64,000 nucleotides of DNA. Source: Mobula hypostoma. Taxonomy: Eukaryota. Position numbers and translations under genes: made by a program. The stretch lies in assembly GCF_963921235.1 (NCBI RefSeq), contig NC_086108.1, forward strand, positions 75,704,001 through 75,768,000, read 5' to 3'. Below the pieces are notes generated by a model that saw only the letters and a list, made by a program, of their open reading frames with translations, did not search any database and was not told where the DNA came from. Of the stretch, positions 4,207 through 54,945 are shown piece after piece; position 1 is the first letter of the stretch, and every line of letters starts with the position of its first letter.

Positions 4207-4448
4207 GCAAACACAAGGAAATCTGCAGATGTTGGAAATTCAAGCAACACACATCAAGGTTGCTGGTGAACGCAACAGGCCAGGCAGCATCTCTAGGAAG
4301 AGGTACAGTTGATGTTTCGGGCCAAGACCCTTCGTCAGGACTCACGAAGGGTCCTGACAAAGGGTTTCGGCCCGAAATGTCGACTGTACCTCTTCCTAGA
4401 GATGCTGCCTGGCCTGCTGCATTCACCAGCAACTTTGATGTGTGTTGC
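4207..4448. mobile_element. Palindromic Penelope-derived insertion (inverted terminal-repeat pair, each arm with a hammerhead motif)
   Basis: Arms ~4242-4341 and ~4351-4450 are reverse complements. TSD ttaatattgataac (4193-4206) / ttaatatcgataat (4449-4462). The same sequence ends GIY-YIG-coding Penelope fragments elsewhere in the window. Confidence 0.8.
4306..4342 (-). ncRNA. Minimal type-I hammerhead ribozyme motif (CpG-decayed)
   Basis: Minus strand reads agtc-CTGACGA-agggtcttggccc-GAAA-catc-aactg. Core boxes and stem II are intact; stem I/III carry transitions. Confidence 0.65.
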
Positions 4449-5696
4449 TTAATATCGATAATATTCTTGCAGACCGGCCAACGGGTGGTGGGGGTGGGGG
4501 GGGGGTGTTCAAGTTCAACGGTGCGTGACAGGGAATGAGGAAAGATGTAGCTAACTCATATCGTTTCATATCACCAAATCATATTGTTTCCTTGCGGCCC
4601 AGTGGTTGGGGATCACTGAGTTAGACCATAAGTGGTTTACTCTAAAATTTCTGAATACAATCCCTGAAACAATCAATCCATGGGAACAATAGCCAGATAT
4701 CTTTGTATATGTTTTTCTGATGGTTATGAAGAATTGGGGATTATATGTTCAGAATAGCATAGCATGACTCTTGTAGCAGACAATATGGGTATTAATTTAA
4801 TAATTGGTTCCTTGAAGTTGTTATAGCCAGGGGGTAGTTGGGATAAGCTCCCACTGCTTACTAAATGTGCCCAATGGCATGCGTCTCAAATAGCCTCTGA
4901 CAACTGAAGTTCTGGTCTTCACAGTAGAACGTTTCTACTGACAGGAGAAGGGGCAAAGATGAGTTACTGGTGCCTTAAAACCTATTGCTTCAGGTAGATG
5001 GGGGTTGGCAGGTCATCTAGGAGAAGGAAAACTCTGATCTCAAACCCCCTCTGCCTTGTTGATATACCCACCCATGGGGAAGGCTACAAGAGTAAACTGC
5101 AAGAAAAACTGGAGCTGGAGTCCCTAATGCAGTCCCACATTGAGCTTAGTACAGGCAGCTCCTGCGACACCACGGGGGTGGAACTGGTTGTTTTGTGAGC
5201 AGAACTTAACTATTCAACACCAACATTCTCCAGAACAAAATGATCTCATTAAAGCTTAATAAATTATGCAGCGTGATGGCAGATGTTGGGATATTGTTTC
5301 TTAAGGTTGCACACTCTGCCATTGAAGTTAGGCCTCAGAATAAAGGCTTGGCTATGCAGAAACAAAATGAGAAATTTCTTCACTATGTTTGCAATTCTGT
5401 ACTGACGGAGGCTCAGTGAGTAAATTCAAGACAGATTAGATTATTTGTGATCTAATTTGGTTAGTATAGGAAGGCAATGCTGAGGTACAAAGTCAGACAC
5501 TTTAGTTGGGTAAAATAGGGCCAAGTAGCTCACTACTATTAATGTTCACGTAAGCAACGCACACAATGTTAAATGTCAACTGTATTCTTTTCTAGCTGGC
5601 CTGCCGAGTTCCTCCAGCATTTTGTGTGTGTTGTTCAGATTTCCGGTAGCTGCAGACTTTCTCTTGTTAATGTTCTTATGATATGTCTTTTAAAAG

Positions 5697-6383
5697 GCTT
5701 ATGGATGGTGTCGTAATGGAATGAAATGCACGCTGTCACACAATATTGACCTCATCATTGACGAAGATGAACGGATCAAGGATGTTAAAAGAAAGAGGAG
5801 AAAGGCTAGAAGACGACGGAAGCAGCAGGCAGTGGATTTGAGTGATAGTGCTGTGGAACCAGTGTCGATAGATAATGTGACTCCTAACGATGGCCCTCCA
5901 CAAAAGTTACTGTGTGGTAGTAGCGATGAGCAACCAGAAAAAATGGACACTGGGGAGGTTCAGGCTAAGCTTTTAAGTGATGTACAAGCTTCCAATGGCT
6001 CCATTTACGAAAAGAACACTGAAGATGATCTCTGTTCAGGAACAGATATGCAGGACTTAAGCAACAATAAAAAGGGGAATAATCCTGGGAATCAATTGTG
6101 TCCAGCAAATGAAACTGTTGTGGAAAGGAACAAAATGGAAAAATGTGATGGAGGTACGCACCGTGCTGGATTTGATGCATTCATGACTGGATTTATAATG
6201 GCTTATATTATGATGTGGAAAAATAGTGAAAATAGCACAGCCACAGATCCTTGGCTCCCAGACTGCCGTAATAAACTTTATCTGAGTGGGAAATCCATAC
6301 CCTTACAGATTTCTAAAAGCTCTTTTTCAAAATCTTCAAAAGCTCACAAGGCCAAGATTGAATTGGTGTGGGGCAAACACTGA
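5697..6383 (+). CDS. TOE1: TOE1 terminal coding exon (CCCH finger completion, basic NLS, HRAGFDAFMTG motif)
   Basis: Acceptor taaaag|GCT. Encodes AYGWCRNGMKCTLSHNIDLIIDEDE...KRKRRKARRRRK...HRAGFDAFMTGFIMAY...PWLPDCRNKLYLSGKSIPL...SKAHKAKIELVWGKH*. Confidence 0.96.
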   Translation, partial: AYGWCRNGMKCTLSHNIDLIIDEDERIKDVKRKRRKARRRRKQQAVDLSDSAVEPVSIDNVTPNDGPPQKLLCGSSDEQPEKMDTGEVQAKLLSDVQASNGSIYEKNTEDDLCSGTDMQDLSNNKKGNNPGNQLCPANETVVERNKMEKCDGGTHRAGFDAFMTGFIMAYIMMWKNSENSTATDPWLPDCRNKLYLSGKSIPLQISKSSFSKSSKAHKAKIELVWGKH

Positions 6384-6420
6384 GATCTGGGCCACAAAGT
6401 TTATGGCAAATAGTTTTAAA

Positions 6421-6426: not shown

Positions 6427-7349
6427 TGATTTCCAAAACTCCCTTCAGTTTACTTTTATGGTCTTACTTAAAGTAAATGGTAAATTTCTAAAAATGAGAT
6501 AGCTACTTTAAACTATCTGGTCTTTAAGCAAATATCACAATTCTTTCCCTTTTAGTTTACCTTTAGTTTATGTTTTGGAAAGTGCTTAATAGTACAGCCT
6601 CAAATTGAAATCTGATAAAGCATAAGTATTGATAGACTGCCTTTTTCTTTGAGGTACTCTGGATATTAAAGATTTAATCTTCCAGTTATTTATATTGCAG
6701 ACAGTCCATTGCTTGCAGTTTGAGTAGTTTTTTAAATAACTAATGGAGAAACTCAGCGGGTCAGGCAGCATCTATGCAGAGGAATAGAGTTGATGTTTTT
6801 GACCAAGAGTTCCTCAGTATTGTGTGTGTATTGCTGTCGATTTCCAGCATTGCGTGTGTTTTTGAAGTCATTTGATCATAAAGCACTTTTCCTGTAATTA
6901 AAAATCTCATTGGATTTCTTTGATACATAGCAGCATTTTTAAAATTTAAGTGAGTCCAAGTAATTTCCTTAAATTCCTACTCCAAATATGTACTCAAGAC
7001 ATAAAGCAATAGTTATTCTTCAATCAGGTTATTGTGAAGCTTAAAATAAACAAGGACACTCCAGCCTGTATGTTCGTATCTTATCACTTAGTATTGGTTG
7101 TGCCTCGTGCTGGTGGGGGTAGATGGCATGTGGCTTAAGTAGGCTGCTCTAAAGGTCACATCATCAGATGAACTTTGCTGGGGAATTCAGTTGTCATTTG
7201 TGGGTTATATGGTGGAAATATTTGATTCACAAGGTAAAGTATACCACAGAATAGTTAGCCATATTCATACAAGCTAGTTAATGGTAACTCAAGATGTCAA
7301 TGCCTTGATTGTATTGCTAATTATCAAGCAGTGGTGGTTACATTGAAGA

Positions 7350-9515
7350 AAATAGAAACATAGAAAACCTATAGCACAATACAGGCCCTTGGGCAAACAA
7401 AGCTGTGCCAAACATGTCCTTACCTTAGAGCTACCTAGGCTTACCCAAAGCCCTCTATTTTTCTAAGCTCCATGTATTCATCTAGGTGTCTCTTAAAAGA
7501 CACTGTCGTTTCCACCAGCAGCCCATTCCACGCACTCACCACTTTCTGCATTTTAAAAAAAAAATTGCCCCTGACATCTACTCTGTACCTACTTCCAAGC
7601 ACCCTAAAACTATGCCCTCTCATGCTAGCCATTTCAGCCCTGGGAAAAAGCCTCTGACTATCCACATGATCAATGCCTCTCGTTATCTTGTACACCTCCA
7701 TCAGATCACCTGTCATCCTCCGTCACTCAAGGAGAAAAGGCTGAGTTCACTCAACCTATTCTCACGAGGCATGCTCCCCAACCCAGGCAACATCCTTGTA
7801 AATCTCCTCTGCACCCTTTCTATGGTTTCCACGTCCTTCCTGTAGTGAGGCAACCAGAATTGAGCACAGTACTCCAAGTGGGGTCTGACAAGGGTCTAAT
7901 ATAGCTGCAACATTATCTCTCGGCTCTTCAACTCAATCCCACGATTGATGAAGGCCAATGCACTGTATGCCTTCTTAACCATAGAGTCGACCTGCACAGC
8001 AGCTTTGAGTGTCCTATGGACTCAGACCCCAAGATCCCTCTGATCCTCCGCACTGCCAAGAGTCTTGCCATTAATGCTATATTCTACCAAAATGAACTAC
8101 CTCACACTTATCTGGGTTGAACTCCATCTGCCACTTCTCAGCTCAGTTTTGCATCTTATAAATGTCCCACTGTAACCTCTGACAGCCCTCCACACTATCC
8201 ACAACACCCCCAACCTTTGTGTCATCAGCAAATTTACCAACCCATCCCTTCACTTCATCTCGGTCATTTATAAAAATCACAATGAGTAGGGGGTCCCAGA
8301 ACAGATCCCTGAGGCACACCACTGGTCACCGGCCTCCATGCAGAATATGACCAGTCTACAACCACTCTGCCTTCTGTGGGCAAGCCAGTTCTGGATCTAC
8401 AAAGCAATATCCCCTTGGATCCTATGCCTCCTTACTTTCTCAATAAGCCTTGCATGGGGTACCTTGTCAAATGCCCTGCTAAAATCCATATACACTACAT
8501 CTACAGCCTACCTTCATCAATGTGTTTAGTCACATCCTCAAAAAACATTCAAATCAGGCTCGTAAGGCACAACCTGCCTTTGACAAAGCTATGCTGACTA
8601 TTCCTGATCATATTACGCCTCTCCAAATGTTCATAAATCCTGTCCCTCAGGATCATCGCCATCAACTTACCAACTACTGAAGTAAGACTCACTGGTCTAT
8701 AATTTCCTGAGCTATCCCTACTCCCTTTCTTGAATAGGGAACTACATCCGCAACCCTCCAATCCTCTGGAACCTCTCCCGTCCCCATTGATGATGCAAAG
8801 ATCATCGCCAGAGGCTCAGCAATCTCCTCTCGCTTCCCACAGTAGCTGGGGTACCTCACATCCGGTCCCGGTGTCTTATCCAACTTGATGCTTTCCAAAA
8901 GCTCCAGCACATCCTCTTCCTTAATATCTACATGCTCAAGCTTTTCAGTCCACTGCAAGTCATCCCTACAACCGGCAAGATCCTTTCCCATAGTGAATAC
9001 TGAAGTATTCATTAAGTACCTCTGCCATCTCCTCCGGTTCCATACACACTTTTCTACTGTCATTTGATTGCTCCTATTCTGTCACATCTTATCCTCTTGC
9101 TCTTCACATACTTGTAGAATGCCTTAGGGTTTTCCTTACGAAGTCCTGACGCAGGGTCTCGGCCTGAAACGTCGACTGCACCTCTTCCTAGAGATGCTGC
9201 CTGGCCTGCTGCATTCACCAGCAACTTTTATGTGTGTTGCTAGGGTTTTCCTTAATCCTGTCTGCCAAGGCCTTCTCATGGCCCCTTCTGGCTCTCCTAA
9301 TTTCATTCTTAAGCTCCTTCCTGCTAACCTTATAATCTTCTAGATCTCTATCATTACCTAGTTTTTTTTTTAAACTTTTCATAAGCTCTTTTCTTCTTGA
9401 CTAGATTTACAACAGCCATTGTACTCCACGGTTCCTGTACCCTACCATCCTTTCCCCGTCTCATTGGAACATATCTATGCAGAACCCCACGCAAGTATCC
9501 CCTGAACATTTGCCT
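7350..9515 (-). mobile_element. CR1 LINE, 3' portion with internal deletions
   Basis: Minus-strand ORFs contain GNYRPVSLTSVVGKL, SQHSFVKGRLCLTSL and GDLMEVYKITRG. The 3' microsatellite-like tail appears as atagaaacatagaaa at ~7352. Confidence 0.9.
9139..9240 (+). mobile_element. Short Penelope terminal-repeat insertion with hammerhead motif, inside CR1
   Basis: Exact 14-bp TSD tagggttttcctta (9125-9138 / 9241-9254). Contains agtc-CTGACGC-agggtctcggcct-GAAA-cgtc-gactg. Confidence 0.85.
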
Positions 9516-16347: not shown

Positions 16348-17375
16348 TCAAATATTGCATTTTGACTGAAGGTGGCAAGGATTTGAATTCATGCATGGAT
16401 TCAGCACCACAGAGGAATGCCCTTCCACGTCAGATGCTTCAGCACAATTACCTGGGTCTATTTCATCTCGCTCCAGTGCAATACTGACACTAAAAGATGA
16501 CTTGTGTTCTGGTATTGCTAATTTTGACATGTCCCTCTGCATTTCTCGCTCCTTCACTTCTTCACTGGAAATTGAGCTATTCCAGTTGCCGCAAGATGTA
16601 CCATTTAAATTTGGCTCATTGCCTCCTGTTATACAATTACAATTCAAGCTCTCTGGAACGCGGAGACTGTAGCTTTCTTCAGTTTTTAAGATGTTTAGTT
16701 GTGTCCTGCGCTCTGTACACAGGTCATTTCCATCCGGTATGTCTTCACTTCCTGAACAGTCCATAGCATCAAACTGTTCTGATGAAAGAGATTGCAGAAT
16801 TGGAAGTTTCTGTTTAAATGGTGGAATCTCCGAAACAGAATATTTGGAAGTGTTCAACACTTTCTGTCTCACATCCGTTCCCAACTGCACCGGGTCACAT
16901 TTCCCCAATGTTAATGAAAAGGGCCCAAAACTATGACATTCTTTTGTTGGCAAAACAGGTGAAACTGGAAGGGATCGATATCGTCGCTCAGAGACGAAAG
17001 TTTCCTGAAAATCCCCAGTAAGGTTCTGTTTGGCTTGGGTTGTTGAAATGAACGAGCAGTCTGCAGAATCAGGTGAAGGCAGGTCAAATGCTAGAGATAT
17101 TACCGATTTACTTGGTGTGTCTACAAATTTTATTTTTCCACCTTTCAAGTCCTGCCTTGCAATGAAAGGATTAATTTTGTGTGACGTTCCCTTGCTAGGA
17201 GTATAGTATGGATCTTGGACATTAATCTTCCGACTAACTTTTCGGGTAAAGAAATCAGACCGACTGCGAGAAAGCCATATATTACGACGTGGCCGAGGCG
17301 ATTTGGGTGGAATCTTATCACTTGGACATACCAGAGGACTGCATCTTTTTATTGCCTGTCCTTTCTCCCCAGCAC
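16348..17375 (-). CDS. TESK2: TESK2 terminal coding exon
   Basis: Acceptor tatag|GT (phase 1). Encodes ...IPPKSPRPRRNIWLSRSRSDFF...DPYY...INPFIARQDLKGGKIKFVDTPSKSVISLAFDL...RRYRSLPVSP...CNI*, matching the TESK2 C-terminal conserved blocks. Confidence 0.95.
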
Positions 17376-17660
17376 CTATAAATGATCATAAAATAAGAAC
17401 ATTACAACCAATTTACAACTTAAAGAAATTTAAACCTGCAATACTTGCTAATAATATTTCTAAGCCACAAGGACTGAGCTACTTTGCATAAAACCAGAAG
17501 ACAGCAACACTACTAAAAGAAATGTTAACAGTCCTCTTGTCAGTGTATTAAAACTTTCTTGAGTTTAACCATGAGCAATCCAGATAAACATTGAGTAAAA
17601 TTAAGTAAAGATATAACAGTGCTAGTACACACAAAATTTCATGGCAGGTCAACTTTAAGT

Positions 17661-18084: not shown

Positions 18085-19355
18085 ATGACTATCATCCAGA
18101 AGCATTTACATCCACTATGATGAAGTGCTTTGAGAGGTTGATGATGAAACACATCAGCTTCTCTAAGAAGTGACTTACAGCCATGCTTATTTGCCTAACA
18201 TCACAACAGGTCAACAGCAGGTGCCATTTCATTGGCTCCCCACTCAACACTGGAACATCTAGACAGTGAAGACGCATACATCAGGATGTTCTTCATTGAT
18301 TACAGCTTGGCATTCAATACTATCATCCTCTCAAAACTAATCAATAAGCTTCAAGACCTAGGCCTCAATACCTCCTTGTGCAAATGGATCCTCAATTTCC
18401 TCACTTGCAGATCCCAGTCATTTCAGATTGGCGACAACATTTCCTCCACAATCACCATCAGCACAGGTGTGCAAGGCTACGTGCTTAGCCCCCTGCTCTA
18501 CTTTTACTTGCTTTATACTTATTTCTGTGAGGCTAAGCACAGCTCCAATATCATATTTAAGTTTGTTCACAACACCACTATCGTTAGTCAAGTCAAAGAA
18601 GGGGTGACAAATCAGCATTTAGGAGGGAGACTGAAAACGTGGCAGAGTGGTGCCACAACAACAACCTCTCACTCAGTGTCAGTTATACCAAGGAGCTGAT
18701 TATTGACTTCTGGAGGAGGAAATTGAAGTCTTCAACCAGTGATCAGAGGTGGAGTTGATCAGGAACTTTAAATTCCTTGTGTTATCATTTCAGTGGATCT
18801 GGCTTGGGTCCAACATGCAAGAACTATTCAGCAAAAAAAAAAGCACAACAGCACCTCTAACCTTAAAGAAAAGCCTACAACAGTAGTGGATACAGCTCAG
18901 TCAATCACAGGTAAAACCCTCCCCACCACTGAGCACATCTACATGGAGCACTGTCACAGGAAAGCAATACCCATCAAAGACCCCCACCACCCAGGCCAAC
19001 AGGAAAGAGGTACAGGAGCCTCAGGACTCAAAGCACCAGGTTCAGAAGCAATTACCACTCGTAATCAGGCTCTTGAATCTGATGGGATAACTTCACTCAT
19101 TCCTTCACTGAACTGTTCCCACAACCACTGCACTCATTTTCAAGGACCCTACAACCCATTTCCACAATATTTATTATTTATTTTAAAATTTTTTTTTTCT
19201 TTTTTTTTCTTTTTGTATTTGTAGAGTTTGCCTTTTGCACACTGGTAGTCTGTCCATTCTGTTTGTTGGGGTCTTTTCAGGGAATCTATCATGTTTCTTG
19301 TATTTATTGTGAATGCCCACAAGAAAGCAAATCTTGGGGTTGTAAATGGTGATAT
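18085..19355 (+). mobile_element. Rex1/Babar-type LINE RT fragment
   Basis: ORF 18232..18699 contains [17 protein letters not shown] and GYVLSPLLY. Preceded by MKCFERL. Confidence 0.85.
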
Positions 19356-20139
19356 AATAATATTAAAATATTATATACATCCAGCTGCTGAATAACTATA
19401 CTACATGCCTTTCTTTAAAAAAGAAAAATGCAAGTTTTGAAGGCAAAATCCATTTCTTCACAATCTAAACTCAAACCCAAACAATCATAAATATTGATAT
19501 TAAAATCAATCAGGTGAGGGTTCAGACTGGGGTGGGGTGGTGAAAGAAATCATTTAATACCTGAGAACAGGACCAAACCAATCATTTTGGTGGCAGACGC
19601 AGTGTGCTAATGTCCTATTTTGGTGAAGCAAAATTTCAATAATCACATTTTAAAAAGGTTGAGATTGAAATTAACTACTGCCCACTTGCTTTCCCAGTGT
19701 TTTGGGGTCACAGTACAAACAGATATCTAAACAAAGTACACTGGAAAGATTGTGAACAAAGGGAATAAAAATCAATTGAAGCAAACCATTAGGGTAGAGT
19801 TGATTGAACCTGATATTTGTAACATAACTTATATTTGCAAATTATTTAAAACTCTAGATGCCCCCAACATTGGATAAAGTCTATTCATTTTAGCAATATT
19901 TAAACCATCACCAGTCCAAAATACAGGGGAAAAAAGCAGCTTCAAATGGTTTATTTCTCATCAGTGATACAGACAAGTGCTGGACAACCACCAAACTAGT
20001 ATTTCTCCCCTTTAACAATCACATTTACATTATAAATCTGCACCTGGCAGCAAGAACATGATAAGGAATCTGTTTCTCTCATTAATTTTCTTAATCTCAG
20101 TGCAAATGAGGACAAAGCAAAACCACTCGTCCCTAAACA

Positions 20140-22200: not shown

Positions 22201-23261
22201 GTGCAGACCTCACTGAGCTGTGGGTGCAGGGAGCAATAAAATATAAAAGGGGGACAGTAATAAACTATGATGGGAGCACACCACTGCAATTTTATTTCGC
22301 TAGAAGGCAATGGCAAACCACTGCTGTAACTTGCCTTGTACACAGTTCCCCACTACGTCAGAGAGGCATGGTGGGAAATCACCCACAAACCGGAGAAACT
22401 CCGGATGCGACGTACCTTTCCTTTTTCTTAAGAAGATACAACGCTTGCAATTCCAATAAATGCTAGTAACTTTCTTAGCTTAGTTATATGCCTGTTCTGC
22501 TTGCATAAGCTGAGTTGGTGGTGCCTGAGCAGATGACCAAGGACAATTTCAAAGGCAAACCCAGCCAAACTGTCTTTCATGGATATGCTTTGCATCAGAA
22601 GTTGTTGAATAATCAAGGGTCTTTACTTTTCCCTTCTTGCAGCACAAAAACTTGTGGGGAACAATTTTAGCTGTAAGAAGTCATGTAAAATTCAGCCATA
22701 TACTGTATTTCTCATCCTGGTACATTACAATCAGACATAGAACATGGACCCTTCAGTTCACTGTTCCACACCGACCATTAATCACCCATTTACAAAAATT
22801 CCACTTTTTCCTCTTAGATCCCACACCAACTCCACTTTCCCAATTCCCTTGCCACCACCTATCCTAGAAACAATTAAGGAGGCCTTGTAACCTACCAGCC
22901 AAAAGATCTTTGATATGTAAGTGGAACTAAAGCACCAGGGGAAACACACATGATGATCGGGAGAATATGCAAGTCCTATAGACAGCATTCAAGCTTAGAA
23001 CTGAACTTGAGCTTCCGCTAAGACAACAGCACCATCCCAAGCCACTGTGCAGCAAGCTATTGAAGTCAATCTGAGAATAACTACTGTATATGCTTTAAGT
23101 CCACTGCCCACCTTAACTTCTGTCCATGTACAGCAAATCCATTTGCTTACACTAGGTCCTTCTCTGCCTTGTCTATTTAAGTGCCTGCCTAAACATCTCT
23201 TAAATGTAGTGACTGAGCCAATACCATTCCTCTTCTGGCAGGCAGCTGCATACACGGCAGA

Positions 23262-36844: not shown

Positions 36845-36952
<108 letters not shown>

Positions 36953-38866: not shown

Positions 38867-39261
38867 TATTTCCTTCAGGACAAATAAAGTTTTATTTTAT
38901 CTTAATCCATCAAGTCCCATAACAATCTAGCACCTATCAATGAGATTACTTCTCATTCTTCTGAACAAAGGACAATTTTGCATCAATATACTTGATCAAT
39001 ATCTGTCCTTGTATGACAGATCTAGCAGGCCAATTCAGCCCAACCCCAAAATAAGCACAATCCTGAAAATGTGTAAATAAAATACATTTTTTTGCTCAGT
39101 GATCACTGCCAGATTCACTAAAAATACCAAGGCAACATCAGAGTACAACAAAGTGCATTTTAAAAAAATACATTGAAACTGGAAAAGTAGAAATGACAAA
39201 CAGAAAATTAGGCATGTAAATTAATTTTCCCCAAGTCTCTGATAAAGAGGAGAACACAAAC

Positions 39262-39346
39262 CTTTTCATTATAGGGCTCACTGCGTAGCACTTCTGGAGC
39301 CATCCAAAATGGTGATCCAACCACCGATAGCCTTTCCGTAGTCTCA
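39262..39346 (-). CDS. TESK2: TESK2 exon (activation loop, APE)
   Basis: aaaag|T...AAG|gtttgt. Encodes ETTERLSVVGSPFWMAPEVLRSEPYNEK; 85 nt, phase 2 to 0. Confidence 0.96.
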
Positions 39347-39764
39347 CTTTTGGGATGAAAACCACATGGATTAGTACTTGTGTAAATAGGGGGAAAACTG
39401 CTCTTGTTCAGTTAGTATAGCATCGAGAAGCTAGTGGACCAGAAGTTGAATTTAAATGCATGACATTTGGACAAAATATATTTTTTACAATGTAACCATA
39501 TCAACCAAAATTATCAAGATTGCATGCTTATACGCATTACCTAATCTGTTGCAGATCACCATTTGGCAAAGTTGCATCATAATCATGATTACCTATCAAT
39601 TGCATTCATAATACCCACTAGTCATCTTAACACCAATTTGGGATCGCCTTTTTTCCAAATAAACCAAGCCCAACTTCCACGGGTTACTCTACATCACAAT
39701 TTCTACAAGAAATTGACTTAATATAACCAGTGACTATACAATTCTACTGATCTCACTCAATTCA

Positions 39765-41345: not shown

Positions 41346-41617
41346 GTGAGTCTGAAACGTCGACTGTACTCTTTTCCATAGACGCTACCTGGCCTGCTGA
41401 GTTCCTCCAGCATATTGTTTATGTTGCTTGTATTCTTCACTATAGGTTTGTCACATGCTTGTCTCTGGATTCTTTCTTGGACCCAGGCACTAATGGCATG
41501 AGAACAAAAGACCAAAGAATTTATCTTTCCGTGCTTGTGGATTGAACCCCTATTTATTAAGACACCTTTCGCTCAGTTCTTGGGACTTCAAAGATGCCTA
41601 GGTGAGTTCCCATCACA

Positions 41618-41755
41618 AGTCCTGATGAAGGGTCTTGGACTGAAACATCGACTGTTTACTATTTTCCATAGATGCTGCCTGGCCTGCTGGGTTCCTCCAA
41701 CATTTTCTGTATATTACTTTGATTTCCAGCATCTGTAGATTTTCTATTGTTTATG
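41618..41755 (+). mobile_element. Penelope terminal-repeat copy with hammerhead motif; a further partial copy at 41350-41430
   Basis: Reads agtc-CTGATGA-agggtcttggact-GAAA-catc-gactg. Confidence 0.75.
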
Positions 41756-42661
41756 AAACAGACTGGGTGACCATTTTGCAGAACACTTCATCCTAAAAGA
41801 GCAACCTGAATTTACAGTTCAAAGTCAACCTAATTCTCTATTCTAACCTTGACACATCTTTGAACTCTCGCGCAATTCCAACAGAAACTAGAACAGCATT
41901 TTGTCTTCCAGCCAGATAAAATGTGTTCAGAAAATCAGGTCTTGCCAGTTTGCATCAAAGCTAAAGTGGGACTGGATGAAAAAATTCTATAAAAGAAAAC
42001 TAAGCAGGTCATCCTTGCAGATTGATTAGCTTTGTTCTGTAAAGCAATCACCAACTGCCAGGATAGAGACATTGTGCATACTGAAAGCAATTCAGATGAA
42101 AAGTTATGATCTTTACTCTCACTACAAATACTAGCCTGTTGAATATTTCCAGCATTGTTTTATTTCACGTCTTTAATGACTGTGGTAGTATGTAATGCAG
42201 TAAAAGGAGTCCTCTCCCACACTGCCTCTGCCTCCATTTCACCCCTATCATTTCTAATATATCTCTCAAATTTCCTTCTCTTCGAAATATATCTGCTGAA
42301 ATTAACAAACTTCACTCTCTCAGCCACTGTCACCAAAATTTAATCAAAAATCTAGAACATTCATCAATCCTATCAACCACCAATGCTGCCACGTGCTTGC
42401 ACCTTTTCTCTGTATTTCAGATTTCTAGTACAGTACCTGTAATTTTTGACTCACTAATGCATCTAATTACTGTATCAATAAAACTGCTTAACAAAATAAT
42501 AGAAGCAATTATAAACATTGATTCATTAGAATTGTGCATTCACTTCACCTTGTACTTCAAGATGTTTGATTAACTGTCTTAACAATTAAAACAGAATAAG
42601 TCTACAAAATATTTTTTGCCACAGTTACAAATTTAATAGTAATTTTAAAAGATTAACTTAC

Positions 42662-42741
42662 TTGTCAGGGATTTTCTCAGCCAGACCAAAGTCACCCAGC
42701 ACTCCAGTGTATCTACCTTCTTCCATTTTAATTAAACAATT
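42662..42741 (-). CDS. TESK2: TESK2 exon (DFG)
   Basis: ttacag|AAT...AA|gtaagt. Encodes NCLIKMEEGRYTGVLGDFGLAEKIPD; 80 nt, phase 0 to 2. Confidence 0.96.
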
Positions 42742-44795
42742 CTGTAAAAGATCAGATCACAACTTTAAATGGAAGTTGCGGTCATTACGTTCATTATCCC
42801 ATTACGGTGAAATATATTGGTGCATAATCTTTGATCTTTAACCAAGTTAAGCTAACAGGATACGTTGTAGAATTAATGATGAATACTCAGCTCACCAAGT
42901 CTAAACTGACCATGTACAGCAATCCCTGTCTCCCATTCCTTCCTTATAGTACTGCAAATTACTTCTCTCTTGGCTTACCCAATTCCCTCGTGAACGCAAA
43001 CGATCCAAGAAAACTGAAATGCAACACAAGATGCTGGAAATTCTCAGGTCAGGAAGCAGTTGTGGATAGAGAAACAGTTAACATTTTAAAATTAGGTCAC
43101 CAAGCTAAAACCTGCCACATGCTAGGCAAGCCATAACTCTGCTTCTTTTAAAGGAGGCAGTTGATTGGGTCATTCATTCTGCAGAAAAAAAACGAAGCAA
43201 GCCTACATTGTAAGCTGCCAGGAAATGGGTCCAACATAGAAAGTGATCTCATCAGTCACATAGTCTCAAAAAAAAACTGAGCCTGTTCAGTTGAATTCTG
43301 AATGTATTTTACTAAAATTCTGTTATGTGCAACATTAGGCGCAAAATGCTCCAGACAAATTCAACAAAGCTTAATTTTCTTTAACTTATCTGCATCTTAC
43401 ATTTTATGCTCGGCTTCCACACATACTTTGACTGTTTACTTTTTATAACTGTCTAATGTACAATACAGAAATCATTTTACTTGATAGCCTGTACAGGGTC
43501 TTGACATTTTGAAAATAAAATATAAATTCTATATGGTGGCCATATAAACAATTCAGTTTTGAGTATTGTCTCTGCAGCAGTTCGTTCAGTTTCTATTTTA
43601 AAAGAAGAAATAAAACAATTTTTCTCCCAAGAGGAGATACAGGAGTGCTCCTTCTTAAATTAAAACCAAGAAAAAAAACAAATACCGATCATAACTTGGG
43701 TCAACCCACTGACGCTTTCTCCATTACACTTCACAAGCTCTATTGTCAGGTGATGTTGTCAGTACTTCGAAAGGAAGTTATTAATGGCACTCATTTTTTT
43801 TCAAGTTTGATATGGCAAGTGATTTATCCACAAATGACTTACTACAAATTGAGTCATTCTGACCATAACATGATCAGTCATTCAGCATGGGAATAGGCCC
43901 CTAGACCAACCACCCAATGAGAAATTTCACACGCATATGCAAATAGAAACTCAAGTCATCAGGCTGGTTCATCTGGAGAACTTTGCAATACTTATTAAGC
44001 AACATCATATTTTTCCCCCAGAGTACATCAGGTCAAGTTCCAGGTGCATGTTAATTCTTTAACCAAATACAGTACTAAGATTCTAAAATAAGAAACATAA
44101 CTTGGAAATGAGTTTACAGTGTAAGAGAAGCCAATAATCTAAGAAAACTTTTCAAGATGACCAAGCTTCTTTCCAAGAGAAATGTGCCGAATTCTATTCT
44201 AAATAATATTCAATGCCCCAGTAAAACAAGCACACTTAACTCTGTGAGGGGAAAAAAATTCTATAATACCACATGTACTCAACTGCAAATTTTTAAAGCT
44301 GTTTTCCAAAAGGAAACAAACACATGCTTTGATAAATGAAGTGTTCTGAGGTAAAGAAGTGAACCACTGAAAAATAAATTTCCAGCAAAGATTTAACACA
44401 TTCTGACAAAAAGGTTCAGAATATATATCAACTGTGCAACCCACTTGCAAAAGCATGCAACTCAAGTAATACCAAATCGTAAATATTTAGGCTCCAGTAA
44501 GGATTTACAGAGCAAACAAACTAGAGTTTATAAGATTAGCTTTACTTGTCACATGTACTTCAAAACATACAAATATGTCACCTGCATCAAATTAAATCAG
44601 AGAGGATTGTGCTGAGCAGACTGTAAATGTTGCCAGAATTGTGGCACTACATAGCATACCTACAGCTCACCACCCTAACATGGGAGGAAAACTGGAGCAC
44701 CAGGGGAGAACATACAAACTACTTCCAAGCAGCAGCAAAGATCAAACAGTGATCTTACAGCTTGCACTGTAAAGCATTGGGCTGCTCGCTAAGCT

Positions 44796-44996: not shown

Positions 44997-45324
44997 CGCT
45001 AAGCTACCATGCATCTAACCATTAGAAAACCACCACTAGCACAAATAACAGCAGATGCTCAGAGAGAATCCAGTAATGATCACTAACAATATTAAAATAA
45101 TTCAAAGCCATTCTTAGACAAGTGGAAAATGTTTTGGCAATTCATGTTTTAAAAAGAGGTTCATGTAGGTAGGTCATGCCTTTTAGAGTACACTATTTGA
45201 TAATGCATCAAAATATACAGACAGAAGATTAAGTCGTCTAACACAGCTATGCAATAGAGAGAAAGGTACAGGCCTGTTAATGTTATGACAGCAGTGGAGG
45301 CATTAATAATTCCCTAGTAAACAA

Positions 45325-46115
45325 AACATACCCTACACTCACGACCGTGTGGGTCAGCACAGCTCAAAAGCCAAGTATAAATTTACCAATGATATCATTG
45401 TTGTTGGCAGAATCTCAGATAGAGATGAGGCAGCATACAGGAGCAATATGCATCAGCTGGTTGAGTGGTGCCGCAACAGCATTGCATTCAATATCAGCAA
45501 GACTAAGGAAATAATTATGGACTTCAGGAAAAAGTTGGGAGAAAACACCCCAATCCTCATTGAGGGATCAGCAGTAGAAAGGATGAGCAGCTTCAAGCTC
45601 CTGGATATCAACATCTCAAGAGGATCTATCCTGATCCCAACACATTGATGCAATCACGAAGAAGGCACAGCAGTGACTACAGTTCATTGGGAGTTTCAGG
45701 AGATTTGGTATGTCACCAAAGACTCTAGATCTCTACAGATATACCATGGAGAATATTCTGTCTTGTGGCATCACTGCTTGGATTGAGGGATCCAATGCAC
45801 AGGATCAAAAGAAGCTGCAGAGATTTGTAAACTCAGCCAGCTCTATCACAATCACAAGCCTCTCCACCATCAAGAACACGTTGAAATGGCAGCAACTCTC
45901 ACCATGCAGAACCTGCCCTCTGGAGGAAGTACAGGAGCTTGAAAATTTGCATTCAACAGGTATGAAAAGCCTCAGATTTCTGAACAGTGCAGGAACACTA
46001 CCTCACTATTCCCCTTTTGCACTAATTATTTATTATTGTAACCTATGGTAATTTTACGATCTTGCACTGTACTGCTGCCACAAAACAAATTGCACAACAT
46101 TTGCAATAATAAACC
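45325..46115 (+). mobile_element. Rex1/Babar LINE 3' fragment
   Basis: ORFs contain KFTNDIIVVGRIS and NISKTKEIIMDFRK. Confidence 0.8.
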
Positions 46116-47065
46116 AGAATTTGGTAACACACTTTTGATAGCTTGCTAGATGGACATAACTTACTTGAATTCAACTCCATGCACAATCCCTATACAAAGG
46201 AGATGCCAATTCCTTCAGGTGCTCTCAATCAAACAGGGTCTACTCAATCGAGCCACCACATAGACAACATCTATTATCTCTCACCACACCATCGGGAATG
46301 GGGAATCTTCTTGCATTCAGTCAATAAGTGACTCCAGGTGATCCAGACTCCAAGATTTATTGATTGATTTATTTTTAAGCACACCAAGGAGGCAAGACAA
46401 CCTGGAATGAGCAAGAAGTCAGGAAGGAATACATTCTCTAGCTTGGTATGGAATTTGGAGACAAAGGAGACTGCAGGTGCAGGAATCTGGAGCAACACAA
46501 ATGCTGGAGGACCTCTGTGTCAGGCAGCATTAACGGAGAGCATTAACAGTCCATGTTTCAGATAGGGACCCTTCTTCTGTATTTAAAGACATAGGGGAAG
46601 ATAGACCAATGTAAAGAGGCTGAGGGAAAGAGTAGAGCAAAAACTAGTGATAAGTAGATTCAGGTAAGACAGGGCAATATGCAGATAGAGAAAGGGAGAG
46701 TGGAAAATTCAATCTGGAAAATGACAGGCAGAAGCAACAAAGCTGAAGATGATGGGATCTGATAGGATAGGAAGGTGAAGAACATTAATCAAAGGAGTGG
46801 CAAGCAGATGGGAGTAGTGGGGGTAGGGATCCAGTGGGAAGAGTGTGGTGGTGTGCAGGAGCAGAAAGAAACAGGACTATGGGGGCAGTGATGAGTGTAG
46901 GGCTGTGTAGATCAAGAGGAGAGAGAAAGGGGTCAGAGTGGATATACTTCCAGAAACTTTAAACTTATATTTTAAATATTTAAAATAAGTCCTTCCTCCC
47001 AAATTTGGAGTAACAAACATTTGGCAAATATCAGTATTAAATTTTGATAAGTTGTATTTCATCTC

Positions 47066-48105: not shown

Positions 48106-48863
48106 TATTTGGATTAAATTGGGCAATATTTTGCCCAGTTCACTATACTGCCAATCTAGTTATCAAAGGTGAACAACAATGAGGAATAGCAGCCACAGAC
48201 TTTCTGCTATATTCTTGCTTTTTGACTGTGAATTGGTTACAGTCTAACAGCAAGATGGTTATTACCAAATATCAATCACAACATTATTCGTGGTTCACTT
48301 TACTGCTTTATTCATGGATGTCATGAAAATAACATGTTTGTTGACATTTATTATGAAGTCTAAATCAAACCCATGAATTCAAGTAATAAAAGGAGAAAAT
48401 ACAGATCTAACCCATTTGATACTATTTTCACAAAAATGTAAGTAGTATTTATTCTAAAGTACTCCAAAGATGGGGAAAAAAAGCTGGTATTTTGCCTTCC
48501 CTAAAAGAATACGAGAATGTGAGAATCAGGGCAGGCTGTGTCTTGGGACAATGTGATCCTGCAATAATGCTTAAGATTGCTATACAATAATGGAGGATGT
48601 AGGCAGCATCACTGTGATGACAATACAGGTTTGTGTACAAAAGCTTCTTAAAGTCAAACTACAGTGTTAAACAAATCGATGTTCAACTTTAGACAAGTAT
48701 GGATTTGCCTATCAAGTAATTCTGCTCCATTAGTTAATAAGTCATTTTAAAATAAACTTAAAACAAATTTATTTGCATAAGTAACTCATGATTGAAACAG
48801 GATCCAAGGGTGGGGGGGGGGGGGGAGAAGGAGAATTAATTCATTCCTCTTAACATACTATAC

Positions 48864-49010
48864 CTTAGAAGTCAGATCCCGATGAAAGACACCTTTGGAG
48901 TGCAAATAACCGAGTCCAGAGGCAAGATCATGTGCTATTTTGACCCGAATAGGCCAGGAAAGATGTTCATTGCTGTCCAACAACTGTTCAAGATTCCCTC
49001 CATTAATATA
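48864..49010 (-). CDS. TESK2: TESK2 exon (catalytic loop HRDLTSK)
   Basis: tttcag|TAT...AAG|gtatag. Encodes [49 protein letters not shown]; 147 nt. DLTSKN is the TESK signature. Confidence 0.97.
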
Positions 49011-49689
49011 CTGAAAAGAAAGCAAACAAGCCAGGAAGTCAGTATCAAGCAACCTCATACGACAATTTAAAATAAATGTAAAGCACTTAACCACTCTACT
49101 GGCACTGTTTCATTTTCCAAATAATTTCAGGGATGCCTACTTCAGCATCCTTCACTTGGATGAGCTGTATTAAGTTGTCCCTGGGACAACTTTTAAACAG
49201 ATTATCATTACATACACATCTTAAAAATATCACAGATCAACTTTTATTTATGACAATCCAAGTCTTTTAATTAGTCTTTTGCTCAAACTTTGAACTTTGC
49301 ATAGGCATCAACTTCCCTTTGATTGTTCAAGCCATTAGCCAACACTAAAGGGTAATTTAGGTTAATGAGCTTAAGCTGAGAATCACTTAGTCCAGCAGCA
49401 AAAATCATATCCCATTATACTACCCCCATTTCCTATATCAAGACTTCATAAAGGTTCCAAGATAGTTCAAGTAGCTAAATAACTACAAAGTCCTACATTT
49501 TCCTTTTAATAATTAAAATCCTCTTTTCCCAAGCCCACAACTTAACTTCAGACCTACATTAATCTTTCACTTAAATATCATCCAACTAAATACAACTTTA
49601 ACATACATAAACAAAAAATTAAAATACAAGTAGTTCGATATGTACTTGAGCTACAAGCTTCAGGAGTAAGATTAGGTTGGGACCCAATA

Positions 49690-50312
49690 CCTCGACTCTA
49701 TTTTATCTGCCTTCATTCAGTCCCTTGCCACCTAAAACTGCAACACTTCACAAGCTCTCAATCTCAACAACTTTTAATTCCCTGTCCTGATTACCGCATT
49801 TTCACCATGGATGCCCAGTCCCGACACACTTCTGTCCTCCATCAAAAAGGCCTTGAAACTGTCTGCTTCTTTCTTGACAACAGATCCAACCAGTTCCCTT
49901 CCACCACCAGCCTCCTCCGTCTGGCAGAACTGGTCCTCACCATCAACAACTTATCATTCAGCTCCCTCCGCTTTCTCTAAACTGAAGGGGTAGCCATGGG
50001 CACCTGCATGGGCCTTAGCTATGCCTGCCTTTACATTGGCTATGAATAGTCCGTATTCCAAAACTTCCTTAGTAATGCTCCATAACTCCATCTGCAGTAC
50101 ATTGACAACTGTATTAATGCTGCTTCATGCACACATACTGAGCTCGTCAACTTCATTAACATTCCCTCCAACTTCCACCCCGCCCTTAACTTCACTTGGT
50201 CCATTGTTAACATCTCTCCCCTTTCTCAATCTATCTGTGTCCATCTTTGGAGACAAACAGTAAACCAGTATCTTTTCTAAACCAACCAATTACCACAGCT
50301 ATCTTGACTATA
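49690..50312 (+). mobile_element. Penelope RT fragment; continues at ~53775-54945 after Rex1 insertions
   Basis: Contains GVAMGTCMGLSYACL and LPFLNLSVSI. Ends at agctatcttgacta. Confidence 0.75.
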
Positions 50313-53300
50313 ATGTGAGTAACGTGAATAATGTGTGCTGCCTTAATGACCATCCCCTGGTAACACTCACATCTACAGTAATGAAATGCTTTGAGAGGTT
50401 GGTCATGACCGGACTGAACTCCTACTTCAGCAAAGACCTAGACCCATTGCAATTTGCCTATCGCACAATAGGTCAACAGCAGATGCAAATCTCAATGGCT
50501 CTTCACACGGCTATAGACCACCCAAACAACACAAACACCCATGTCAAGATGCTGTTCATCAACTATAGCTCAGCATTTAATACCATCATTCCCACAATCC
50601 TGATTGAGAAGTTGCAGAATCTGGGCCTCTGTACCTCCCTCTGCAATTGGATCCTCAACTTCCTTACCGGAAGATCACAATCTGTGAGGATTGGTGATAA
50701 CATCTCCTTGCTGACTATCAACACTGATGCACCTCAGGGGTGTGTGCTTAGCCCACTGCTCAACTCTCTATATACCCATGACTGTGTGGCTAGGCATAGC
50801 TAAAATACCATCTATAAATTTGCTGACAACACATCCATTGTTGGTAGAATCTCAGATGGCGACAAGAGGGCGTACAGGAGCGAGATATGCCAACGTGGAG
50901 TGGTGTCGCATCAACAACCTGGCACTCAGTGACAGTAAGACGATTGTGGACTTCAGGAAGGGTAAGGCAAATGAACACATACCAATCCTCACAGAGGATT
51001 CAGAAGTGGAGAGAGTGAACAGTTTCAAGTTCCTGGGTGTCAAGATCTCTGAATTGAATTGAATTGACTTCATTTCTTACATCTTTCACATACATGAGTA
51101 AAAATCTTTACTTTACGTCTCTGTCTAAATGTGCAATCATAGTCACTTATAATAATTTATAATAAATAGAACAGTCAATGTCACAAAGAAATACACTCAA
51201 ATCAGTGTGAGTTACTCAGTCTGATGGCCTGGGGGAAGCTGCAGCTCCAGAGATCATTGGTGCTAGCTTTCATGCTGCAGTCCCGTTTCCTGGATGGTAG
51301 CAGCTGGAATAGATTGTGATTGGGGTGACTCAGGTTCCGAATGATCCTTCGGGCCCTTTTCTCACACCTGTCTTTGTAAATGTCCTGAATCATGGGAAGT
51401 TCACAACTACAGATGCACTGGGCTGTCTGCACCACTCTCTACAGAATCCTGCGATTAAGGGAGGTACAGTTCCCATACCAGGCAGTGATGCAGCCAGTCA
51501 GGATGCTCCCAGTTGTGCCCCTGTAGAAAGTTCTTAGGATTTGGGGGCCTATACCAAACTTCCTCAACCGTCTGAGGTGAAAGAGGCACTGTTCTGCCTT
51601 TTTCACCACACAGCTGGCGTGTACAGACCACGAGGTCCTTGGTGATGTGGATGCTGAGGAACTTAAAGCTGTTTACCCTCTCAGCCCCAGATCCATTGAT
51701 GTCAATAGGGGTTAGCCCATCTCCATTCCTCCTGTAATCCACAACCAGCTCCTTTGTTTTTGTGACATTGAAGGAGAAGTTGTTTTCTTGACACCACTGT
51801 GTCAGAGGTGACTTCTTCCCTGTAGGCCACCTCGTTATTGTTTGAGATAAGGCCAATCAATGCAGTGTCAGCAAATTTAATTAGCAGATTAGAGCTGTGG
51901 GTGGCGAGACAGTAATGGGTATACAGGGAGTAAAGGAGGGGACCTAGTACACAGTCCTGAGAGGCTCCTGTGTTGAGAGTCAGAGGGGTGGAGGTGAGGG
52001 AGCCCACTCTTACCACCTGCCAGCAATCTGACAGGAAGTCCAGGATCCAGCAGCACAAGGCAGGGTGAAGGCTGAGGTCTCTGAGCTTCTGGTCCAGCCT
52101 GGATGAAATTATGGTGTTAAATGCTGAACTGTAGTCCAAGAACAGCAAACTCACATAACCATCCTTCTTCTCCAGATGTGTAAGGATGGTATGTAGAGCG
52201 GTGCCTATTGCGTCATCTGTCTATCAATTTGTTGGTAGGCAAACTGTAGGGAGTTCCAGTTTGGGTGGTAACAAGCTGCAGATGTAATCCTTGACCAGCC
52301 TCTCAAAACATTTGTTTATTATTGAGATGAGTGCGACAGGACGCCAGTCTTTCAGGCATGTTACTTTGGTCTTTTTTTTTGTACAGGGACAATGGTGGAT
52401 AATTTGAAGTATGAGGATACTCTACACTGGGAGAGGGAGAGATTAAAAATGTCTGTAAACACACCTGCCAGTTGTGCTGTGCACATACTGAGTACTCGCC
52501 CTAGGATGTCGTCTGGTCCTACAGCCTTGCGACTATCCACTTGTTGGAAACATCTACATATCTCAGCCTCAGAGATGACCAGGTTGCAGGTTATAGCGGC
52601 GGCTCTCCTCAGAGGCTCAGAGTTAGCGACATCGAACCAAGCATAAAAGCATTTGAGCTCACCTGGGAGAGAGGCCGTGATGTTGGCGGCACCACTACTT
52701 TTGGCTTGGAAGTCTGTGATGGAATGCAACCCTCACCACAATTCACATGTGCTATTCATTATGAATCTTGACTCCATCTTGTCCCTGTATTGTTGTTTTG
52801 CAGCCTTGATAGCTTTGCGCAAATCGTAGCTGCTTTTCTTAAACTCCTACTGATTGCCAGCAGCGTAAGCTCTGTGTCACGCGTTAAGTGCTGCTCACAC
52901 GGAGCTATTGATCGAGGGTTTATCGTTCAGGAAGACACTGACTGACTTCTGGGGGACAACATCATCGATGCACTTCCAGATGAAGCAAGTGACCCCATTC
53001 GGGAACTCGGAGACATCCTCATCACGGAAGACATTCCAGTCAACGTCATCGAAGCATTCCTGCAGCATGGAGATCGATTGGTCGATCCAACAGTGGATGG
53101 TTTTAATCTGAGGACCTAATCTGGTCCCAACAGATCAATGCAGTTATAAAGTAGGCAAGACAGAGACTATACTTCAATAGGAGTATGAAGAAATTTGGTG
53201 TGTCAACAAATAAACTCAAAAACATCTACAGATGTACTGTGGAGAGCATTCTGATAGGCTGCATCACTGTCTGGTATGGGGGGGGGTCTACTGCACAGGA

Positions 53301-53765
53301 GCGAAAGAAACTGCAGAGGGTTGTAAATTTAGTCGGCTCCATCTTGGGTACTAGCCTACAAAGTACCTAGGACATCTTCAGGGAGCAGTGTCCCAGAAGG
53401 CAGCATTCATTATTAAGGACCTCCAGCACCCAGGGCATGCCTTTTTCTCACTGTTACCATCAGGTAGGAGGTACAGAAGCCTGAAGGCACATACTCAGTG
53501 ATTCAGGAACAGCTTCTTCCCCTCTGCCATCCAATTCCTTAATGGACATTGAACCCTTGAACACTACCTCACTTTTTAAAAAAAATATACATTTGTTTTT
53601 GCAAGATTTTTAATCTATTCAATTTACATATATTGTAATTGATTTACTTATTTATTATTCTATCTTGTTTTTTTCCTTCTATATTATGTATTGCATTGAA
53701 CTGCTGCTGCTAAGTTAACATATTTCACAACACATGCCAGTGATAGTAAACCTGATGCTGATTTT
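50313..53765 (+). mobile_element. Rex1/Babar LINE (50313-51051 and 53107-53765), split by an antisense Rex1 copy
   Basis: ORF 50315..50803 contains MKCFERLV...DPLQFAY...INYSSAFNTII...PQGCVLSPLL. The host sequence aagatctctga|ggaccta rejoins across the insert. Confidence 0.88.
51052..53106 (-). mobile_element. Antisense Rex1/Babar LINE nested in a Rex1 LINE
   Basis: Minus ORFs contain KAVGPDDILGRVL...FTDIFNLSL and LDYSSAFNTI. Tail seen as (gaatt)n at 51051-51066. Confidence 0.88.
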
Positions 53766-53774
53766 GATTCCTAT

Positions 53775-54945
53775 CCTATCTGCTGTGCCTTTTTCCAGTT
53801 CCTTTGCCTCCATGTCTGGTCCCAGCATGACGCTTTCCTTTCCAGGACATCAGAGATGTTCTCCTCCTTCAAAGAACGGGGTTTCCCATTCTCCACCATT
53901 GATGCTGCCTTCATCTGCATCACCTCCATTTCCTGGATATCCGTGTTCACCTTATTTTCCTGCCGCTTTAACAGGGATAGAGTTTTTCTTGTCCTCACCT
54001 ACCACTGTGTGAGCCTCAGCATCCAATATATCATTTTCCCCAAATTCTGCCACCCCAACAAAATCCTGCCACCAAGAACACCTTTACCTCCCCTTCCCAT
54101 GCCCCCATCCTCTGCAGGGATTGTTCCCACTGTGGTTCGACTGCCCATTCATCTCTCCCAACTAAGTTCCCTCCTAGCACTATCCGTGGAAACTGCAGAA
54201 GTGCTACACCTGCCCATTCACCTCCTCTATCATCTCCATTCAAGGCCCTAAACACTCCTTCCAGGTGAGGCAACACTTCACCTGCAAATCCGCTGGGACT
54301 CACCTACTGTTTCTGGTGCTCTCGATGCAGCCTCCTCAACACAGACTGTGGAACCACTTTGTCGAGCACCTCCACTCCATCCACAAAAAATGGAATCACC
54401 TGGTGGCCAACCATTTTAGTTCCTATCCCCATTTCCATTCCGACATATCAGTCCAAGGTCTCCTCTTCTGCCATAAAGAGGCAAATCTCAGGTTGGTGGA
54501 GTAACACCTTGTATTCCATCTAGGTAGCTTCCAACCTGATGGCACGAACATCAATTTATCTGACTTCCTGTCATTTTCCCCCTTCCCCAATTCCCTACTC
54601 TGCTTTCTTGCCACTTCTCCTCACCTGCCTCCCAACAGCTTCTGATGCCTCTCCTCCTTCCCTTTCTCGTATGCTCCACTCTCCTCCCGTCATATCCCTT
54701 CTTCTCCAGCCTTTAATTTTCTGACCAACCATTTCCCAACTTCTTATTTTTCCTCACCCGCCCCCCCCACCCCAAACAGGCTTCACCTATCATCTTCTAG
54801 CTTGTTATTCTTCCTCTCTCCTATTCTAGCAACTCCCCCTTCTTTTCCAGTCCTGATGAAATGTCTTGGCCGAAAATATTGATTATTCATTCGTTTCCAT
54901 AGATGCTACCTGGCCAGCTAAGTTCCTCCAGCATTCTGTGCCTTT
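53775..54945 (+). mobile_element. Penelope C-terminal/GIY-YIG region and 3' terminal repeat with decayed hammerhead
   Basis: Contains FKERGFPFSTIDAA..NRDRVFLVLTYH, RQHFTC and FVEHLHSI. Motif ccagtc-CTGATGA-aatgtcttggcc-GAAA at ~54847-54875. Confidence 0.8.

Follow-up and report, generated by a model that had tools for sequence, protein, structure and literature searches.

In the genome of the cartilaginous fish Mobula hypostoma, a 64,000-nucleotide stretch of contig NC_086108.1 (positions 75,704,001 to 75,768,000 of the forward strand, hereafter the window) contains dispersed copies of a 37-base motif that an earlier reading of the letters, the original prediction, had taken for a hammerhead ribozyme deprived of a helix III loop. 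How would such a ribozyme cut, which element carries it, and does its cleavage matter for the spread of that element? In the answer that we consider fairly probable, the motif is the minimal hammerhead of the pseudo-long terminal repeat (pLTR) of a hugely amplified Neptune-type Penelope-like retrotransposon. As a monomer, this hammerhead would be folded in an inactive form; it would cut after GUC only when paired with a second copy through ACGU, probably with the aid of a protein, and its cut site is intact in nearly all genomic copies.

The motif, its fold and its subfamilies

All six main copies proposed in the window were recovered at their places and on their strands, and the three weaker candidates proved real as well (20200-20230 on the minus strand, 31313 and 41350 on the plus strand). 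A 28-nt core pattern with up to three mismatches matched the window three times, against none in 100 shuffles. A profile built from seven window copies gave 16 matches at E<1e-3, including these seven. According to a family-independent descriptor of the minimal hammerhead, none of the copies is intact, in keeping with the earlier remark that every copy here is substituted. The breaks include G8A at 4351, A9C at 9143 and loss of the palindrome at 4306 and 41618, the old hammerheads having multiple changes each, and the substitutions fit neutral CpG decay. Judged from their sequences, the window copies are likely decayed and inert passengers, which bears out the suspicion that they may be inactive.

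Throughout the 3.48-Gb genome, the exact 33-mer of the original prediction occurs 6,969 times and its reversed control is absent. A degenerate pattern with an intact core gave 54,272 matches, a lower bound for the intact copies, and again none for the control; both the high copy number and the conserved CUGAnGA/GAAA core that had been predicted are thus observed. In a sample of 60 evenly spaced 10-kb pieces (600 kb), the profile detected 104 copies and the descriptor, in which helix III has no loop, 14 intact ones, the reversed controls giving none in either case. By extrapolation, relics would number about 600,000 in the genome and intact motifs about 80,000. Bases resembling one young element make up 33,479 of the 600,000 sampled.

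The core boxes CUGANGA and GAAA, U16.1 and H17 are found together in the intact genomic matches and in no single window copy. Helix I has 4-5 bp and helix II has an unpaired base after A9. This layout, with its core boxes, an extra base between 9 and 10.1, G10.1 and a palindromic 15.2-16.2 segment, is that of the minimal hammerheads which Cervera and De la Pena described in 2014 (PMC4209133) from pLTRs of Penelope-like elements in metazoans. On these sequence features, the motif is a minimal type-I hammerhead with an ACGU palindrome and a loopless helix III, as proposed. According to the accessible parts of the 2014 study, both systems are loopless type-I hammerheads with the same palindrome and the same unpaired base, a helix I of 4-5 bp, a location in the pLTR, mostly solo copies, with a few tandem pairs spaced by about 3 kb and, in some cases, two copies close together on opposite strands. 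The present family differs by its size (at least 54,272 core-intact motifs, against about 4,000 in coelacanth and about 9,000 in Xenopus), by a short helix II (4 bp) that is usually closed by G-U, and by one subfamily carrying A6C (PMC4209133). No cartilaginous fish was found named in the text and supplementary files of that study that were searched.

Several subfamilies may be distinguished, although attempts to set apart an "E" subfamily gave no clean separation. The majority sequence of the hammerhead is nearly identical in A1-A3, B and D, whereas the flanks differ; the differences within the hammerhead are limited to position 7, position 11.1 and loop II. The ACGT palindrome is the majority form in A, B, the subfamily with C at core position 6 (C6) and D, and is CpG-decayed in F. 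F is the oldest subfamily, with 26% divergence; non-CpG divergence is 3.8% in A against 11.6% in the A6C lineage. The consensus start CAGTC given in the original prediction suits the older copies, but helix I of the young copies begins with TAGTC. Similarly, the GGG...CCC stem II does not describe the commonest young form, in which helix II is closed by G-U (CCT-GAAA) and not by G-C. The 10.1-11.1 pair is G-C in A1, B and D, and a G-U wobble in this commonest young form and in F.

Comparison of F with A and B offers some indication that the stems are constrained. In 30 F loci, chosen only on bases 3′ of position 17 so that position 2.1 played no part in the selection, position 2.1 has T 18 times and C four times, in agreement with an A at 1.1. 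Helix I of F has therefore U2.1-A1.1 in place of C-G, and its helix II has U-A in place of U-G. Between F and A/B, one pair of helix I is thus changed on both sides and one pair of helix II on one side, the stems being otherwise invariant. The helix I change would be compensatory, which gives modest support to a fold under selection.

How the motif would cut is a separate matter. In the predicted monomer fold, the core GACG pairs with CGUC (-13.5 kcal/mol, versus -9.5 kcal/mol for the open form). For two copies, an extended duplex (-35.3 kcal/mol) is predicted to be more stable than the double-hammerhead form (-17.9 kcal/mol). An inactive monomer and a disfavoured double hammerhead would fit the published activities, which are low or depend on a protein. 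Indeed, only low activity was described for dimers and trimers (Cervera and De la Pena, PMC4209133) and, in the available text of a later study, cleavage was obtained only with the protein of the element and was not needed for insertion in vitro (Frangieh et al., 2024, PMC11167929). The statement of the original prediction that such hammerheads cleave as dimers therefore goes further than these sources.

It may be added that a branch-point-like word, a pyrimidine tract and a CAG stand directly 5′ of helix I in A, B and C6, so that the sequence preceding helix I resembles a 3′ splice site (L004:1470-1497, L063, and 34763-34790 on the minus strand of the window). The intron of Penelope in D. virilis is described as ending at the same place, just 5′ of helix I (PMC4209133). 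Among the joints listed for contigs from four sequencing runs, no GT-AG joint ending at the hammerhead was found.

The carrier element

A Penelope-like open reading frame (ORF) lies upstream of the motif. Twenty loci were fetched, picked for long open frames among 150 scored matches. In seven of them, one hammerhead stands directly before the start of the ORF and a second one 3,462-3,728 nt downstream, while several others have an inverted, 5′-truncated partner. A single open frame of 1,013-1,015 amino acids is retained in two of the 20 loci; it matches RVT_1 (E 2e-5) and, at its C-terminal end, GIY-YIG (E 5e-4 to 2e-3). The full-length layout is pLTR-ORF-pLTR, the motif lying in the pLTR and the hammerheads being about 3.5 kb apart. 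In the five loci for which it was measured, the distance from the predicted cut to the downstream ATG is 137-138 nt. The link with Penelope elements carrying reverse transcriptase and GIY-YIG domains, which had been proposed, is thus found again in the long-frame loci.

The ORF carries a CX4CX2C linker before the endonuclease. In the accessible parts of Craig et al. (2021, bioRxiv 2021.04.23.441226), a CX2-5CxxC linker is the mark of Neptune/Nematis. From its sequence, the element is a Neptune-type, endonuclease-positive Penelope-like element, its clade being set by the linker motif alone. With the Neptune clade as described there, it has in common a reverse transcriptase, the linker and, at the C terminus, a GIY-YIG domain, as well as partial tandems, inverted 5′-truncated partners and a tail.

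The 3′ ends of 291 young copies are bimodal, with peaks about +65-70 and +100-105 relative to the cut; not one of these copies runs on into the ORF. Together these ends are the Penelope "tail"; in PAc, an element of Anolis, this tail marks two internal starts of reverse transcription (PMC11167929). With PAc, a Poseidon element, as far as it is described in the available text, the present element also shares a hammerhead in the pLTR near the start of the ORF, two reverse-transcription starts giving a tail of 30-40 nt and, on our reading, uncut RNA as the main template. It differs by the position of the cut, which in PAc is 26 nt inside the ORF, and by its Neptune-type linker, known here from the translated frames (PMC11167929). 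Both 3′ ends lie about 18-21 nt after a CCAGCA word (window 9179-9241, L063 tail), and both words can pair with upstream TGCTG motifs; such a pairing may position the starts of reverse transcription.

Copy ends and the role of cleavage

If cleaved RNA were the template, copies should start at the cut. The young copies that have the sequence 3′ of the cut number 75,024, and 98.6% of them keep a pyrimidine at position 17. A purine is found there in 1,066, and 15 of 30 such cases inspected were junctions (about 530 in all); on this basis, about 1.4% of the young copies are put as starting at the cut. At a control position, which is a cruder comparison, there were 627 purines, with junctions in 7 of 30 inspected (about 146). 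Two-purine patterns, for which the controls are matched, numbered 305 at +1 versus 194 at +5 and 174 at -8, so that a pile-up of 5′ junctions at the scissile bond is not supported. Inversions with 1-4 nt of microhomology account for 20 of 30 junctions at +1. A small share of cleaved templates is possible. As a separate observation, three independent insertions (L148, L149 and L150) have the same unusual inversion junction adjoining the cut, and the arms of L149 differ at subfamily-diagnostic bases, as if they came from two RNA templates.

A strong signal came instead from G5, where 2,150 junctions were counted with a pattern not limited to subfamily A; 11 of 20 inspected were fold-backs with an inverted arm ending at -31 and 2-3 nt of microhomology. 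When the copies that served to centre a locus are set aside, 154 are left; 19 of these have their start within -32 to -29, and not one starts at +1. Helix I has its first base, and so its outer edge, at position -32. The start at -32 matches what we take to be the initiator consensus, a motif short enough to be matched by chance. A further cluster of starts near -206 turned out to be an artefact of a poly-C tract.

In the mechanism that we favour, the RNA would start at or near helix I and its hammerhead would, as a monomer, likely stay in the inactive form. Cleavage after GUC is predicted when two copies pair through ACGU, the protein of the element probably assisting. Reverse transcription would be primed internally at the tail; run-off at the 5′ end of the RNA would yield inserts of 100-135 nt such as that at 9142-9241, and fold-back would yield the inverted pairs. 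The template would have a scissile bond that is uncut or has been re-ligated; at most, cleavage would be an occasional processing step.

Conversely, cleavage might be essential. In a pLTR-ORF-pLTR transcript, each of the two hammerheads would cut the other, the 3.5-kb unit would be circularised, and reverse transcription round the circle would give copies longer than one unit, with read-through reflecting re-ligation. Such a model was proposed for Penelope-like elements (PMC4209133). Two intact hammerheads do surround the ORF in L063, L065 and L067, and the core is kept across subfamilies. The pLTRs within a locus are slightly more alike than those of different loci (0.967 versus 0.954, six loci), but this gap is small and is also expected from shared ancestry. 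Moreover, the pile-up of starts at -32 requires a linear, uncut RNA, the A6C lineage has amplified, and hammerhead mutants of the Anolis element PAc inserted normally in vitro, where no RNA ends were seen at the cut (PMC11167929). Thus, an obligatory circle appears unlikely.

The A6C lineage deserves particular attention. When C was required at core position 6, the pattern matched the genome 2,216 times. Older-type flanks are shared by 26 of 30 loci inspected (L291-L320), several of which have the endonuclease end upstream; the other four are independent changes in A copies. Among loci not chosen for this base, C6 occurs in 13 of 20 with the older-type flank, in 2 of 206 of A and in 3 of 27 of B. 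In random DNA, it is found in 7 of 55 readable copies, which suggests a lineage of tens of thousands of copies, with a wide error. In a tree of endonuclease ends (37 rows, with 12 A rows kept), the C6 copies did not form one clade. In another hammerhead, A6C lowered Mg2+ cleavage about 100,000-fold, and according to the parts of these sources consulted the same core substitution occurs naturally in the hammerhead of phage Bcep176 (PMC3088659, PMC7151607); there it concerns a single bacterial-phage ribozyme, here a whole retroelement subfamily. No open-access paper was found tying A6C to Penelope elements.

It may be imagined that catalysis is vestigial here and that the sequence is retained for its role as a start site, as a promoter or in binding protein. 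Besides the A6C copies, the G-U pair at 10.1-11.1 of the young majority form and the clustering of starts on a match to the assumed initiator consensus would agree with this possibility. So would the Naiad elements, which are described as amplifying without hammerheads (Craig et al., 2021, bioRxiv 2021.04.23.441226). On the other hand, all other subfamilies, young ones included, keep every core base and the palindrome, helix I is compensated in F, and the A6C lineage is older than A and could have been helped in trans. A wholly vestigial ribozyme is therefore doubtful. A related suggestion, which we put forward only tentatively, is that amplification of an ORF-bearing lineage with a crippled A6C core to tens of thousands of copies, together with read-through of an intact cut site in about 98-99% of young copies from an RNA starting at helix I, would make the hammerhead a protein-gated switch or start element, for which cleavage is dispensable.

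Several observations weigh against the protein-aided minimal hammerhead that we favour. The junction excess at the cut, small as it is, stands above both kinds of control. A subfamily has amplified with A6C, an argument against a strict need for catalysis. The compensation in F concerns one pair in one old subfamily, at a CpG, and an ORF directly upstream was seen in none of the 30 F loci. Fold energies are no better than those of shuffles (z from -1.5 to +0.8). The RVT_1 and GIY-YIG matches are both below the curated Pfam cut-offs. Finally, an Rfam scan of the window at E<=10 matched no hammerhead family, presumably because the Rfam models expect a helix III.

Short inserts, window copies and host genes

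The original prediction had the motif also travelling in short non-coding inserts. Such inserts exist, but not as a separately travelling unit. They are colinear with the pLTR of ORF-bearing copies, with 89-96% identity and the same two 3′ ends, and they are 5′-truncated or inverted pieces of the Penelope-like element, since they have the target-site duplications and inverted arms typical of that parent. A separate non-autonomous retrozyme or short interspersed element (SINE) family, spreading via its own small circular RNA, would account for hammerhead-and-tail fragments being about 100-fold above pLTR-ORF junctions in contig depth and for the common 5′ start of many short inserts. In the accessible text of Li, Clavereau and Pollet (2026, bioRxiv 2026.07.22.740005), non-LTR retrozymes indeed have a type-I hammerhead and a pLTR origin, and pLTR-derived tandem retrozymes were found in the one chondrichthyan sampled. 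However, these retrozymes are tandem arrays of units of 50-1,000 nt, whereas the present copies are dispersed, solo or inverted, colinear with their parent and do not start at the cut site. No tandem array was observed among the window copies; no genome-wide search for rare arrays was made. A separate family is thus very improbable overall, the idea being largely refuted for the young family and possible for the old F family.

The window illustrates the forms that the insertions take. Hammerheads 4306-4342 and 4351-4386, counted as two copies in the original prediction, actually belong to one inverted Penelope insertion (4204-4450), with an inverted arm carrying the tail (4204-4342, minus strand), a direct arm without it (4351-4450, plus strand) and a 15-bp target-site duplication with one mismatch (4191-4205 / 4447-4461). 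The first hammerhead (minus strand, young subfamily A) has G16.2→A, which breaks the palindrome, and G1.1→A, which breaks the first pair of helix I (CpG decay); the second (plus strand, subfamily A) has core G8→A and C15.2→T. The idea that this pair would be a natural dimer was rejected, since the two have opposite orientations and a hairpin of 100 bp would result from their pairing. A minimal insertion of 100 nt (9142-9241, plus strand) starts exactly at the 5′ strand of helix I and is flanked by a 14-bp target-site duplication (9125-9138 / 9241-9254); its hammerhead (9142-9178) has A9→C and an intact palindrome. Likewise, a subfamily B minimal insertion at 41618-41753 (plus strand) starts at helix I, its hammerhead having a helix II mismatch and G16.2→A. 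A copy cut off at its 5′ side (41350-41434, plus strand) starts within helix II and keeps GAAA-CGTC-GACTG.

Longer and older pieces are also present. A decayed Penelope copy at 20132-22231 (minus strand) comprises reverse transcriptase and linker fragments (20629-22231), the 3′ untranslated region (UTR) and a decayed hammerhead ending near 20197. At 30705-31452, an old Penelope GIY-YIG fragment (30705-31231, minus strand) is accompanied, in the opposite orientation, by a decayed hammerhead and tail (31313-31452, plus strand). An old subfamily B insertion (34636-35418) has on the minus strand the endonuclease end, 3′ UTR, decayed hammerhead (34726-34763) and tail, and on the plus strand an inverted arm (34998-35418). 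At 53769-54955 (plus strand), an old Penelope fragment with thumb and GIY-YIG (53769-54568) is followed by the 3′ UTR and by a hammerhead, from 54849 on, that has decayed heavily. A Penelope reverse transcriptase fragment at 49687-50581 (plus strand) has no attached hammerhead. No match was obtained when the window Penelope-like fragments were searched with Pfam.

The remaining pieces are small: an inverted relic at 5548-5668, with most of its hammerhead gone and a 9-bp flanking duplication; profile matches to decayed copies at 6741-6817, downstream of the TOE1 stop codon, and 46481-46578, the latter old (both minus strand); a young tail-only fragment without hammerhead at 26803-26875 (minus strand); a young inverted insertion joined at the 3′ end of the hammerhead (27728-27830); and a very old relic of the hammerhead 3′ end and downstream part (43021-43087, minus strand).

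Other repeats were noticed. A weak match (25%) to Penelope reverse transcriptase at 24439-25173 (minus strand) possibly belongs to a more distant Penelope-like family. An element at 28967-29984, with inverted repeats of 133 nt and a transposase fragment (29108-29635), is one that we take to be of the Tc1/mariner family. A repeat with a tRNA-like head (59757-59819, minus strand, under the Rfam gathering score), also present in locus L018, is probably a tRNA-derived SINE. Decayed reverse transcriptase fragments of long interspersed elements, from at least two other families, occupy 405-1510, 8083-9138, 18199-19224, 26945-27460, 45310-46051, 50264-53577 and 56320-58313.

The copies lie in and between two host genes. 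The last two coding exons of a TOE1-like gene lie at 3869-6383 (plus strand, frame 3869-4141 and about 5694-6383). The name would follow from weak CAF1 and CCCH matches, upstream CAF1-type motifs and a synteny of TOE1 with TESK2 that we assume. TESK2 coding exons extend over 16348-60245 (minus strand): frame 16348-17385 is TESK2, its best named match being a whale shark protein (67%), and other exon-containing frames are 31662-31868, 36845-36952, 39211-39411, 42661-42756, 48861-49109 and 60162-60245. The insertions at 4204-4450 and 5548-5668 are within the last intron of the TOE1-like gene. TESK2 introns hold the copies between 20132 and 54955, which occur in both orientations, and the copies at 6741 and 9142 are placed between the stop codon of TOE1 and that of TESK2. 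Most copies are therefore intronic, in agreement with the many intronic copies of the original prediction, the one at 9143 being an exception. Although most window copies are intronic and several are in sense orientation, the idea that they would be co-opted regulators of TOE1 or TESK2 pre-mRNA may be dismissed as extremely improbable, because none passes the hammerhead descriptor, both orientations occur, the substitutions are those of neutral CpG decay, and the density of 16 copies in 64 kb is about the genome average (104 in 600 kb).

No elasmobranch description of this hammerhead family was found in open-access text, and supplements may list shark or ray motifs. The kind is already described; the family is set apart by its copy number and by its A6C lineage, the intact motifs being about ten times the published vertebrate counts. 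It would be a handy system for asking whether cleavage, circularisation or folding alone is what matters for Penelope retrotransposition, since it offers young copies that are almost identical and keep open frames, intact hammerheads in pairs, and an A6C lineage of natural origin. With intact motifs numbering in the tens of thousands, one may also ask whether intronic copies ever cut host pre-mRNA in trans.

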